Shown: one piece after another, positions 22,476 through 62,577 of the stretch
How positions within the stretch are numbered: the first letter of the stretch is position 1
How the letters are laid out: every line of letters starts with the position of its first letter
NCBI RefSeq assembly: GCF_001677475.2
Contig: NZ_CP015229.1
Origin: Escherichia coli
GTDB taxonomy: Bacteria; Pseudomonadota; Gammaproteobacteria; Enterobacterales; Enterobacteriaceae
DNA length: 64,000 nucleotides
Direction: 5' to 3' (one strand)
Made by a program: the position numbers and the translations under genes
Notes under the pieces: model-generated
What the model saw: only the letters and a program-made list of their open reading frames with translations
Told to the model about the DNA's origin: nothing
Databases searched by the model: none

Positions 22476-22551
22476 GGCCCCTTAGCTCAGTGGTTAGAGC
22501 AGGCGACTCATAATCGCTTGGTCGCTGGTTCAAGTCCAGCAGGGGCCACCA
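22476..22551 (+). tRNA. ileX: tRNA-Ile (anticodon CAU, lysidine-modified)
   Basis: 76-nt sequence ggccccttagctcagtggttagagcaggcgactCATaatcgc...gggccacca folds as a canonical cloverleaf with CAT anticodon and encoded CCA; its 3' 46 nt are repeated at 36093-36141. Confidence 0.92.
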
Positions 22552-58403: not shown

Positions 58404-58481
58404 TGCGTATCTGCGCACGTCGAAGATGAAAAAGGCGTGCTACATTGACGACAGAATCCCTTTATGGAGTATCCACGCGTT

Positions 58482-59468
58482 ATGATACGTTTCGCTGTGA
58501 TTGGCACGAACTGGATCACTCGTCAGTTCGTCGAGGCCGCCCATGAGAGCGGTAAATACAAGTTAACCGCCGTTTATTCCCGCAGCCTTGAACAGGCTCA
58601 GCACTTCGCCAATGATTTTTCTGTCGAGCATCTGTTTACATCGCTGGAAGCGATGACGGAAAGCGATGCCATTGACGCGGTGTATATTGCCAGCCCGAAT
58701 GCCCTGCACTTTTCCCAGACACAACTTTTCCTTAGCCATAAAATTCATGTGATTTGCGAGAAGCCGCTGGCGTCGAATCTGGCGGAAGTGGATGCCGCCA
58801 TTGCCTGCGCACGAGAAAATCAGGTGGTGCTGTTTGAGGCATTTAAAACCGCCAGCCTGCCGAACTTTCATCTGTTACGCCAGGTGCTGCCGAAAGTCGG
58901 CAAATTGCGTAAAGTCTTTTTCAACTACTGCCAGTATTCCTCGCGGTATCAGCGTTATCTGGACGGCGAGAATCCCAACACCTTTAACCCGGCGTTCTCT
59001 AACGGTTCAATCATGGATATCGGCTTTTACTGCCTGGCGTCGGCGGTGGCGTTATTTGGTGAACCGAAAAGCGTGCAGGCAACCGCCAGTTTGCTGGCAA
59101 GCGGCGTGGATGCCCACGGCGTGGTAGTGATGGATTACGGTGATTTCAGCGTTACGTTGCAGCACTCAAAGGTCAGCGATTCTGTGCTGGCAAGCGAGAT
59201 TCAAGGCGAAGCGGGATCGCTGGTGATTGAAAAACTTTCTGAATGCCAGAAAGTCTGCTTTGTGCCACGCGGCAGCCAGATGCAGGATCTCACCCAACCG
59301 CAGCATATTAATACCATGCTCTACGAAGCAGAGCTGTTCGCTACCCTGGTGGATGAGCATCTGGTGGATCATCCAGGGCTGGCGGTCAGTCGCATCACCG
59401 CCAAACTGCTGACCGAGATTCGCCGCCAGACTGGGGTGATTTTTCCGGCAGATAGCGTAAAACTATAA
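58482..59468 (+). CDS. ygjR: Gfo/Idh/MocA-family oxidoreductase
   Basis: Recognised N-terminus MIRFAVIGTNWITRQF (NAD-binding Rossmann start) at 58482; 328 aa. Confidence 0.82.
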   Translation: MIRFAVIGTNWITRQFVEAAHESGKYKLTAVYSRSLEQAQHFANDFSVEHLFTSLEAMTESDAIDAVYIASPNALHFSQTQLFLSHKIHVICEKPLASNLAEVDAAIACARENQVVLFEAFKTASLPNFHLLRQVLPKVGKLRKVFFNYCQYSSRYQRYLDGENPNTFNPAFSNGSIMDIGFYCLASAVALFGEPKSVQATASLLASGVDAHGVVVMDYGDFSVTLQHSKVSDSVLASEIQGEAGSLVIEKLSECQKVCFVPRGSQMQDLTQPQHINTMLYEAELFATLVDEHLVDHPGLAVSRITAKLLTEIRRQTGVIFPADSVKL

Positions 59469-59519
59469 TTGCCAAAGTAAAACAGTGTAAAAGGTATGTA
59501 ACAGACCATTGACTGGCTG

Positions 59520-59751
59520 AATGGTCTGTCATACTTTGTTACCTGCAAAGGGGAGTAACTTCATTGCCGGTCGATCGTCATTACGATGTGTGAAAAACCA
59601 CATCCGGTCACCGGGCAACCCGAAAGGAATACGCAGACGTATTCCTTTTTTGTTGTAAGTGAGACCTTGCCGGAAGGCGAGGTCTATGCATAAAAAGCAG
59701 CGGCTGACGTCTTCCGACGTTGGCCGTTTTTTTTATGTGTAAGGAACTTCT
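59520..59751 (+). ncRNA. alx 5' leader: pH-responsive element / yybP-ykoY-type Mn2+ riboswitch
   Basis: Long structured untranslated leader before alx with a terminator-like hairpin and U-tract (gcggctgacgtcttccgacgttggccgtttttttt) just before the ATG; assignment from established knowledge of the alx locus. Boundaries approximate. Confidence 0.55.
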
Positions 59752-60717
59752 ATGAATACTGTCGGCACGCCGTTGCTATGGGGCGGATTCGCTGTTGTTG
59801 TCGCCATTATGCTGGCTATCGACCTGTTGTTGCAGGGGCGTCGTGGGGCACATGCCATGACCATGAAACAGGCTGCGGCCTGGTCGCTGGTCTGGGTGAC
59901 GCTGTCGTTACTGTTTAACGCCGCTTTCTGGTGGTATCTGGTGCAGACACAGGGGCGCGAAGTCGCTGACCCGCAGGCGCTGGCCTTCCTCACGGGTTAT
60001 CTGATTGAGAAATCGCTGGCGGTCGATAACGTCTTCGTCTGGTTAATGTTGTTCAGCTATTTCTCTGTTCCGGCGGCATTACAGCGCCGCGTGCTGGTGT
60101 ATGGCGTGCTCGGGGCGATTGTTCTGCGTACCGTCATGATCTTCACCGGTAGCTGGCTGATTTCGCAGTTCGACTGGATCCTGTATATCTTCGGTGCCTT
60201 CCTGCTGTTTACCGGCGTGAAAATGGCGCTGGCCCATGAAGATGAATCAGGCATTGGCGACAAGCCGCTGGTGCGTTGGCTGCGCGGTCATTTGCGCATG
60301 ACCGACACCATAGACAACGAGCATTTCTTTGTGCGTAAGAATGGCTTGCTGTATGCCACGCCGCTGATGCTGGTGCTGATTCTGGTGGAATTGAGCGACG
60401 TGATTTTCGCCGTGGATAGCATCCCGGCTATCTTCGCCGTGACCACTGACCCGTTCATTGTGCTGACCTCAAACCTGTTTGCGATCCTCGGCCTGCGTGC
60501 GATGTATTTCCTGCTGGCGGGCGTAGCAGAGCGTTTCTCGATGCTCAAATATGGCCTGGCGGTGATTCTGGTGTTTATCGGTATCAAGATGCTGATTGTC
60601 GACTTCTACCATATTCCGATCGCCGTTTCGCTGGGCGTGGTGTTTGGCATTCTGGTGATGACATTTATTATCAACGCCTGGGTGAATTATCGGCATGATA
60701 AGCAGCGGGGAGAATGA
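59752..60717 (+). CDS. alx: TerC-family membrane protein (putative Mn2+ exporter)
   Basis: 321-aa polytopic membrane ORF. Confidence 0.88.
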
Positions 60718-60815
60718 TTCGCTGTATATTAAGCCATTACTAGAGATAACTCATTCCAGACAAAGGTGAGCTATTAATTATGTAATCGGCTTATAGCTCT
60801 TTACAAAAAGACCGC

Positions 60816-61070
60816 ACTGGTGTTGGTGGCGTCAAAATCGCCGAAGCGTTCCCTGGAGGCCGGGGCGACGCGCATGGATGCGCGGCGAGGGCGCATCTTA
60901 CAGGGACGTTCCCTTGCGCCCGACCCGGTAGCCGCAAGGGATAAGCTGAGGGAACCGCGCAGCGGCGATTTTGTTCGCCAGAGCCTGGGGGTGCAGGGGG
61001 CGGCGGCGATTGGCCGCCCCCTGCGCGCTCCCTGCGCCAGTGACTTTATATGGCATAGCACATTAAAGGA
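60816..61070. repeat. GC-rich palindromic intergenic element
   Basis: Dense imperfect palindromes (e.g. gggggcggcggcgattggccgccccc, agggacgttccct) between alx and sstT; both overlapping ORFs in the track look non-coding. Confidence 0.4.
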
Positions 61071-61332
61071 GCGCAACCGTTCTCATATTCCAAATAGTTT
61101 TGCCCATATGTTATCTAATCAGCCTTAGTAGCCAGTCCTTCCCTCTGTTTATGTCAAATAAATGTAACCATTAAGTTGCAAAATATGACCTCTCTTTAAA
61201 ATCCAGCATTTTTCGCTTCCCGAAGCTGTAACTTTCCTTATACTCGACCTTGCAAACACTTTGTTACATCCTGAAAGATGCGTCGACAGAACGCACCAGG
61301 GATGTGCGACAACACAATGAAAGGATCGAAAA

Positions 61333-62577
61333 ATGACTACGCAACGTTCACCGGGGCTATTCCGGCGTCTGGCTCATGGCAGCCTGGTAAAACAAATCCT
61401 GGTCGGCCTTGTTCTGGGGATTCTTCTGGCATGGATCTCAAAACCCGCGGCGGAAGCTGTTGGTCTGTTAGGTACTTTGTTCGTCGGCGCACTGAAAGCC
61501 GTTGCCCCCATCCTGGTGTTGATGCTGGTGATGGCATCTATTGCTAACCACCAGCACGGGCAGAAAACCAATATCCGCCCTATTTTGTTCCTCTATCTGC
61601 TGGGTACCTTCTCTGCTGCTCTGGCCGCAGTCGTTTTCAGCTTCGCCTTCCCTTCTACCCTGCACTTGTCCAGTAGCGCGGGTGATATTTCGCCGCCGTC
61701 AGGCATTGTCGAAGTGATGCGCGGGCTGGTAATGAGCATGGTTTCCAACCCCATCGACGCGCTGCTGAAAGGTAACTACATCGGGATCCTGGTGTGGGCA
61801 ATTGGCCTCGGTTTCGCACTGCGTCACGGTAACGAGACCACCAAAAACCTGGTCAACGATATGTCGAATGCCGTCACCTTTATGGTGAAACTGGTCATTC
61901 GCTTCGCACCGATCGGTATTTTTGGGCTGGTATCTTCTACCCTGGCAACCACCGGTTTCTCCACACTGTGGGGCTACGCGCAACTGTTGGTCGTGCTGGT
62001 TGGCTGTATGTTACTGGTGGCGCTGGTGGTTAACCCATTGCTGGTGTGGTGGAAAATTCGTCGTAACCCGTTCCCGCTGGTGCTGCTGTGCCTGCGCGAA
62101 AGCGGCGTGTACTCCTTCTTCACCCGCAGCTCTGCGGCGAACATTCCGGTGAATATGGCGCTGTGCGAAAAGCTGAATCTGGATCGCGATACCTATTCCG
62201 TTTCTATTCCGCTGGGAGCCACCATCAATATGGCGGGCGCAGCAATCACCATTACGGTGTTGACGCTTGCTGCGGTTAATACGCTGGGTATTCCGGTCGA
62301 TCTGCCTACGGCGCTGCTGTTGAGCGTAGTGGCTTCCCTGTGTGCCTGTGGTGCCTCCGGCGTGGCGGGGGGGTCTCTGCTGCTGATCCCACTGGCCTGT
62401 AATATGTTCGGTATTTCGAACGATATCGCCATGCAGGTGGTTGCCGTCGGCTTTATCATCGGCGTATTGCAGGACTCTTGCGAAACCGCGCTGAACTCTT
62501 CAACTGACGTGCTATTCACTGCGGCAGCTTGCCAGGCAGAAGACGATCGTCTGGCAAATAGCGCCCTGCGTAATTAA
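61333..62577 (+). CDS. sstT: Serine/threonine:Na+ symporter
   Basis: 414-aa polytopic membrane [24 protein letters not shown]... Confidence 0.9.

Follow-up and report, generated by a model that had tools for sequence, protein, structure and literature searches.

Reports exist on a divergent branch of the yybP-ykoY riboswitches that lies in front of alx. The alx leader of Escherichia coli K-12 has been described as a Mn2+- and alkaline-pH-responsive riboswitch of the yybP-ykoY type that acts mainly on translation (PMC12153347, PMC12934788, PMC10197570, PMC9472077). In a published translational fusion, expression was induced 21-fold with Mn2+ and 68-fold at alkaline pH, and both responses were lost without the leader element, which is known as PRE (pH-responsive element) or SraF. 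The alx aptamer has been reported as a divergent member of the family, being a three-way junction without P2, with a distinct L3, a terminator in P4 and a P5/P6 expression platform, and alx-like forms are reported to be confined to Enterobacterales (PMC12153347, PMC12934788, PMC9472077). The L3 consensus of these forms is UCAUUAC (PMC12153347). Single-molecule FRET has shown Mn2+-dependent docking, and the mutation A37U abolishes the response (PMC12934788). In probing experiments, the RNA visited both conformers whether or not Mn2+ was present (PMC12153347). The riboswitch couples Mn2+ sensing to alkaline pH in the control of a TerC-family Mn2+ exporter, and the sequence analysed here leaves this picture unchanged.

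The window studied here is a stretch of 64,000 nt from contig NZ_CP015229.1 of the Escherichia coli assembly GCF_001677475.2. In it, ygjR (58464–59468, plus strand, an ORF for a Gfo/Idh/MocA oxidoreductase) is followed by alx (59752–60717, plus strand), which was identified from the ORF list, the RefSeq annotation and PF03741. A profile search found the TerC domain PF03741 in this ORF at 1.4e-53, and the K-12 annotation of the alx product is "Mn(2+) exporter Alx"; the leader is thus located directly upstream of a metal (Mn2+) transporter gene. Bases 59440–59800 were matched over at least 80% of their length by 5419 of 5426 complete E. coli genomes, with ygjR and alx as the flanking genes in the RefSeq annotation. 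Over the leader itself no feature is annotated among the E. coli records listed, nor in K-12. The 283-bp ygjR–alx intergenic region differs from that of K-12 MG1655 at two places, namely 59598 within the P3.2 hairpin loop, where C replaces the A of K-12, and the U-tract, which is U8 rather than U7. Both polymorphisms recur in other E. coli genomes, which match the window at 100% identity, and both are at non-critical positions. The K-12 leader, PRE or SraF, occupies the same locus with essentially the same sequence; its promoter, aptamer, P5, P6, Shine-Dalgarno (SD) sequence and start codon are identical to those of the window, and the published residue numbers, L3 consensus and termination sites all map onto the leader described here. 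Bases 59544–59751 are therefore the 5' leader of alx. An earlier note on this DNA had called the stretch the alx leader riboswitch, with known pH- and Mn2+-responsive control of alx translation, and had regarded this as established biology. Identity with K-12 apart from two bases, the published experiments and the comparative analysis support the assignment, published K-12 experiments bear out the mode of control, and the riboswitch was indeed already known. We consider it very probable that the leader is a default-OFF riboswitch, in which a Mn2+ aptamer of divergent yybP-ykoY type, built as a three-way junction, is joined to a two-hairpin expression platform. Sequence identity, helices, covariation and energetics were computed here, the Mn2+/pH response and the translational output are taken from the literature, and we infer the co-transcriptional order of events.

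The transcript start was placed by matching the published residues A11, A37 and A137 to the sequence. All three are adenosines only if +1 is 59544, and this position was adopted as the origin. With this numbering the published alx-like L3 consensus falls on 59578–84, and A137 becomes 59680, a position that fits the published account of a base paired in the inactive conformation and bulged out in the active one. The earlier note had given the element as 59520–59751; the leader part of that span holds, whereas its 5' edge does not, the RNA most likely starting at 59544 and 59520–59543 being promoter DNA.

The alx-type Mn2+ aptamer, a three-way junction, spans 59544–59671 on the plus strand, as delimited by a covariance model, covariation and the published L3 consensus. 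Its closing helix P1.1 (59545–51 with 59665–70) is followed by L1, GGAGUAA (59552–58), by P1.2 (59559–61 with 59661–63) and by the L2 linker (59562–66). The second leg consists of P3.1 (59567–77 with 59605–14), L3 (59578–84, with A37 at 59580) and P3.2 (59585–90 with 59599–604), and P4 occupies 59616–55. The segment 59547–59559 reads AAAGGGGAGUAAC and agrees with the L1 consensus UUGGGGAGUAGC, its GGGGAGUA being identical to the RF00080 consensus. L3, a 5'-side loop of 7 nt, separates two covarying helices, P3.1 and P3.2, and its sequence UCAUUAC differs from the family consensus ACAUACU. In place of a P2 hairpin and a four-way junction, 3–5 nt (59562–66 in the window) lie between P1.2 and P3.1 in all 70 leaders compared. 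The 3' strand of P1.1 behaves as a switch strand, as 59665–70 can pair either with 59545–51 or within P5 (59662–85), and both alternative pairings are fully conserved but invariant. Two other placements, a P1 formed by CUGC at 59543–46 with GCAG at 59697–700 and a P3.1 at 59566–70 with 59604–08, were rejected on the published numbering (+1 at 59544) and on the covarying columns.

For comparison, 80 loci with Alx orthologues were taken from Enterobacteriaceae, Erwiniaceae, Yersiniaceae and Pectobacteriaceae, and the 70 distinct leaders among them were aligned. These leaders span more than 25 genera, and the window aligns end to end with the other 69; an alx-type (PRE) leader is syntenic with alx in the 80 loci. 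The L1 motif GGGGAGUA and L3 UCAUUAC are invariant in the 70 leaders, as is A37 (59580), for which the metal-binding role is known from the literature (PMC12934788). Little or no variation was likewise seen in L1 (GCAAAGGGGAGUAACUU), in the L3 core (CGUCA..ACG), in the 3' strand GUAAGUGAGACCUUGCC or in the loop of P5. In the ON structure, 99.1% of the cells of the alignment are paired, and 16 pairs change on both sides, as compared with 8.6 +/- 1.5 in shuffled alignments (none of 500 reached 16) and 1–8 in slid controls. The covarying pairs are distributed over P3.1 (5 of 10), P3.2 (5 of 6), the base of P4 (3 of 4) and the antiterminator (3 of 8). One of the antiterminator changes, from A-U to U-A in Citrobacter, involves 59712, and because this base lies in the P6 loop the change is not explained by P6. 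In the OFF structure 96.4% of cells are paired, and P6 covaries at 3 of its 12 pairs. Across the 70 leaders no covariation was found in P1.1, P1.2 or P5, which are invariant or only lose pairs; the inner 6 bp of P5 are conserved. Since P1.1 and P1.2 never vary, covariation is uninformative on both helices, and what supports the switch helix is conservation together with the literature alone.

The expression platform contains two terminator-like hairpins and one competing helix. The P6 terminator hairpin, published as site D, covers 59686–59740 (plus strand) and was recognized from folding, covariation and published termination. Its core stem at 59699–59728 has 13 pairs, 7 of them G-C, with a UUCC loop, and is followed by a U8 tract at 59727–59734. 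The core alone folds at -20.4 kcal/mol as compared with -7.9 +/- 2.3 for shuffled sequences (z = -5.36), and none of 200 shuffles was as good. A lower-stem extension of 12 bp (59686–97 with 59729–40) ends 1 nt from the SD sequence. The earlier note had placed a terminator-like hairpin with a U-tract immediately before the ATG; the hairpin and the U-tract are there, whereas direct adjacency is not, as 17 nt (59735–59751) intervene and the SD sequence AAGGA sits in this gap. The SD sequence (59741–45) and the alx ATG (59752–54), together 59741–59754 on the plus strand, were located from the ORF list and the minimum-free-energy fold. The second terminator-like hairpin, inside the aptamer, is the P4-internal terminator published as site B (59622–59651, plus strand), which was both called as terminator-like and recovered by folding. 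It has a 12-bp stem at 59622–59649 with a U6 run, and P4 folds at -17.4 kcal/mol (z = -6.9). Both 59699–59728 with U8 and 59622–59649 with U6 thus have the form of an intrinsic terminator, a G+C-rich stem-loop followed by a U-tract, and termination itself is known from the literature. In vitro, transcripts end at about 108–110 nt (site B) and about 190 nt (site D) (PMC12153347, PMC9472077). These lengths correspond to about 59651–53 and about 59733, the ends of both predicted hairpin/U-tract sites.

Between the aptamer and P6 lies the P5 hairpin (59662–59685, plus strand), assigned from folding and conservation to the OFF state, where it ties up the 3' strands of both P1.1 and L1. It folds at -18.8 kcal/mol (z = -6.3) and is present in the minimum-free-energy fold. 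The antiterminator of the ON state, the published P5/P6 helix, lies at 59671–59716 (plus strand) and was drawn from covariation and from folds of nascent transcripts; in it 59672–79 (GGAAGGCG) pairs with 59708–15 (CGUCUUCC). The whole leader (59544–59770) folds at -97 kcal/mol, with z = -7.96 against shuffled controls, and its minimum-free-energy fold is the OFF state, with P3, P4, P5, the extended P6 and the SD sequence paired to L1/P1.2. In this fold 59741–43 and 59746–51 pair with the 5' strand of L1/P1.2 (59551–61), in agreement with the published model in which the ribosome-binding site pairs with the disrupted P1.1/L1 (PMC12153347). When the aptamer was held closed, nascent transcripts with 3' ends at 59716–59728 had the antiterminator as their minimum-free-energy fold, in place of P5. 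In the full-length leader with the aptamer forced closed, the antiterminator was not the minimum-free-energy fold, and P6 was still thermodynamically favoured.

These elements suggest a mechanism for the switch. At low Mn2+ and neutral pH, the short P1.1 would not be held and its 3' strand would be captured in P5. The long P6 terminator would then form, its extended lower stem running up to the SD sequence, and the freed 5' strand of L1/P1.2 would pair with the SD region. In this OFF state many transcripts would be stopped by the terminator in P4 or by that in P6, and those that reach full length would be poorly translated. In the ON state, which alkaline pH would favour, Mn2+ would sit between L1 and L3 and P1.1 would be held, so that P5 could not form. 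The 3' half of P5 would instead pair with the 5' half of P6 as the antiterminator, disrupting P6 and leaving the U-rich region and the SD sequence open to ribosomes. Because P6 is thermodynamically preferred even with the aptamer closed, the ON state must be kinetic or stabilized by tertiary contacts, which agrees with the published probing (PMC12153347).

The same features can be read as control exerted mainly on transcription, with the P6 terminator and its antiterminator as an attenuator, P4 as a lineage-specific brake and L1–SD occlusion as peculiar to E. coli. Folding predicts P6 and its U-tract for 69 of the 70 leaders, and the antiterminator covaries, whereas no more than 14 of the 70 are predicted to pair L1 with the SD sequence. 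The two intrinsic termination sites are used in vitro, about 46% of transcripts ending at site B (PMC9472077), and deletion of the PRE has been published to raise transcriptional output. Against this, it was the E. coli translational reporter that rose 68-fold at alkaline pH, and alx expression at that pH has been reported as largely post-transcriptional. P6 also folds with and without Mn2+ in published probing (PMC12153347), and its lower stem abuts the SD sequence in 66 of the 70 leaders, so that translational occlusion fits equally well. A mainly transcriptional switch, which would be compatible with the default-OFF riboswitch described above, seems to us the less likely account, at a chance of perhaps one in a few, and the default-OFF riboswitch is retained.

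The distribution of the platform elements bears on how this control may have arisen. P5 is present in the predicted fold of 55 of the 70 leaders. The lower stem of P6 reaches 6 bp or more in 66 of the 70 and ends at a median of 12 nt 5' of the AUG. A U-run follows P4 in only 10 of 70 leaders, including those of Escherichia, Pseudocitrobacter, Pseudenterobacter, Lelliottia and some Enterobacter. The terminator-like form of P4 is a long A/U-rich stem with a U-run, while in Kosakonia and others P4 has 4 bp and a short loop. From these predicted folds, the terminator/antiterminator pair together with the extended P6 helix looks like the conserved core, and the P4 terminator and the L1–SD pairing may be lineage-specific. 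A tentative extension, to which we give rather less than an even chance, is that control originally worked by attenuation of transcription together with occlusion, by the extended P6, of the U-rich region on which ribosomes land, the L1–SD pairing and P4 terminator of E. coli being lineage-specific.

Several leaders carry insertions or partial losses (leaders L003, L014, L039, L030 and L071). In Atlantibacter sp. RC6 (L025:880-1003) the aptamer core is missing, and L1 and CTTCCTTGCCGG run straight into the P5 sequence AAGGCGAG. The gap is as if deleted between UUGCCGG repeats, which in the window stand at 59564–70 and 59667–73; L1 is mutated (GAGTCAC), while the promoter, P6 and the SD sequence are retained. 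The Escherichia albertii leader (L003:600-1003) has an insertion of about 180 bp with REP-like sequence and a duplicated P4 hairpin. ERIC-like repeats were found within P4 in Siccibacter (one copy) and Enterobacter pulveris (L039, two copies), and an ERIC-like insertion lies between P6 and the SD sequence in Phytobacter diazotrophicus. The Rouxiella leader has kept the P6 hairpin alone.

The element was first found as the small RNA SraF (PMC9472077), and its strong terminators, near 110 and 190 nt, would give short stable products. It might accordingly be regarded as chiefly a free-standing, trans-acting RNA of about 190 nt that ends at P6, with the hairpin as its terminator. SraF has since been reassigned in the literature as the cis-acting leader of alx (PMC9472077). 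Moreover, the element always stands directly 5' of alx orthologues, with the SD sequence 6–13 nt after the helix, and the antiterminator covariation makes sense only for control of read-through. We consider a principal role in trans very improbable and keep to the cis-acting leader.

The relation of this leader to the yybP-ykoY family was examined with covariance models. The earlier note had taken a significant hit of the family model as the yardstick, such that its absence would speak against the riboswitch. RF00080 gave no match at E<=10 in 59470–59770 (301 nt), none at E<=1 in 58500–61500 (3 kb) and none at the gathering score (45 bits) over the whole window. Other Rfam families in the 301-nt scan (STnc370, STnc240, RydC and several miRNAs) scored 12–20 bits with E values of 0.25–7 and were taken as chance matches to hairpins. 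The K-12 alx locus was likewise not matched by RF00080, nor were any of 20 alx-type leaders from other genera. The positive control, the mntP leader of E. coli K-12 (L002:1962-2058), was found at 41.6 bits (E = 1e-8), which is below the gathering score of 45, so that annotation at the gathering threshold would also miss the crystallographically studied mntP aptamer. Because the aptamer is published as divergent, because RF00080 also misses K-12 alx and the 20 other leaders, and because the invariant L1 and L3, the covarying helices and the predicted terminators at the published termination sites all speak for the riboswitch, the miss is judged a false negative, and the yardstick, not the assignment, is considered at fault. 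A negative scan is not a valid refutation here, as the RF00080 model of Rfam 15 misses the alx-type class in every genus tested. A reciprocal model, R1, was built from 67 orthologous alx-type aptamers, the window sequence among them. It scored the window aptamer at 124 bits, by construction since the window is in the alignment, and made no other match in the window. R1 gave no match to the mntP leader with default filters or with filters off. Since RF00080 misses alx and R1 misses mntP, the two riboswitches are not connected by covariance models, and the kinship of alx with canonical yybP-ykoY elements is not demonstrable by such models here.

This mutual failure, together with the lack of a P2 helix and an L3 of UCAUUAC instead of ACAUACU, could be taken to mean that the leader is an independent invention of Enterobacterales which merely shares the short GGGGAGUA motif. 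Its L1, though, equals the family consensus at 9 of 10 positions; the helices come in the same order (P1.1, L1, P1.2, P3.1, a 7-nt 5'-side L3 with a conserved A, P3.2 and P4), and the regulated gene belongs to the same class, a TerC-family Mn2+ exporter. Published evidence includes the crystal structure PDB 6CC1, in which an L. lactis aptamer bears the L3 of alx (PMC12153347), as well as Mn2+-dependent docking and the loss of response in A37U (PMC12934788). An unrelated origin is in our estimation very improbable, and the leader is regarded as a divergent yybP-ykoY relative. That the alx-type aptamers form a subclass uncaptured by the RF00080 model of Rfam 15, for which a separate model is needed in annotation, is put forward only as a possibility that we rate below even; the Rfam 15 paper makes no mention of RF00080. 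A dedicated alx-type model, for example from the 67 aptamers, would close the annotation gap, and this gap is the only new value of the analysis.

Upstream of the leader, an inverted repeat and a putative promoter at 59500–59537 (plus strand) were read from the sequence and compared among orthologues. The perfect 10-bp inverted repeat at 59500–09 and 59520–29 (ACAGACCATT ... AATGGTCTGT) is followed by CATACTTTGTT, and compensatory changes preserve the hairpin across many genera, as in GCAGGCCAT..ATGGCCTGT and ACAGGGCAT..ATGCTCTGT. The putative -35 hexamer of alx, TTGACT (59509–14), lies within the inverted repeat (59500–29), and the putative -10 hexamer, TACTTT (59532–37), lies 3' of it. These hexamers were assigned only by their 17-nt spacing and by their position relative to +1 at 59544; a scan with the sigma-70 consensus called no promoter on the plus strand. 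The hairpin at 59500–59540 probably serves as the terminator of ygjR and overlaps with the promoter of alx, for which its U-rich tail would also supply the -10 region. P6, on the same strand as ygjR and 3' of it, is a good intrinsic terminator, but the notion that it is a mere ygjR terminator is scarcely credible, as it lies 231 nt past the stop codon of ygjR (59468), another hairpin that covaries and has a U-rich run stands right after ygjR at 59500–59540, the alx promoter and +1 come between, and P6 covaries with the upstream antiterminator.

Elsewhere in the window, the only Rfam matches above the gathering score are a Sib antitoxin RNA (RF00113, 144.8 bits) at 2103–2252 on the minus strand and a tRNA gene at 22476–22548 on the plus strand. 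Downstream of alx, the alx–sstT intergenic region (60730–61130) measures 615 bp as compared with 398 bp in K-12, with a G+C-rich element of about 290 bp replacing the K-12 sequence. The element is a repeat: an E. coli genome carries it at 3 places in the median and at 5 at most, the majority of its copies share 80–90% identity, and none is annotated. At 60821–60986 there is a sub-threshold Rfam match to TwoAYGGAY RNA (33.1 bits against a gathering score of 43, E = 0.012).

Among known systems, the canonical mntP riboswitch of E. coli (RF00080) has the L1 motif GGGGAGUA and the helix order in common with alx. Like alx, it is described as having an L1/L3 metal-binding core and as acting as a translational ON switch 5' of a Mn2+ exporter (PMC12153347). 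It is a four-way junction with P2, whereas alx has a linker of 3–5 nt instead; its L3 is ACAUACU as against UCAUUAC; it has neither a P4 terminator nor a pH response, while alx has both; and it is matched by RF00080 (41.6 bits), which misses alx, and missed by the alx-type model R1. Crystal structures of yybP-ykoY aptamers from Lactococcus lactis and Xanthomonas oryzae have shown two coaxial legs that dock through an A-minor contact of L1, with a metal site between L1 and L3, as described for alx (PMC12153347), and a chimera of the L. lactis aptamer that carries the alx L3 has been crystallised as PDB 6CC1 (PMC12153347). Both of these aptamers are four-way junctions, whereas the native three-way junction of alx is without a structure (PMC12153347). 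The closing-helix 3' strand, antiterminator and U-tract terminator are mutually exclusive in alx, as they are in the classical terminator/antiterminator riboswitches. In contrast to those platforms, the output of E. coli alx is reported to be mainly translational, and its terminator stem extends to the SD sequence.
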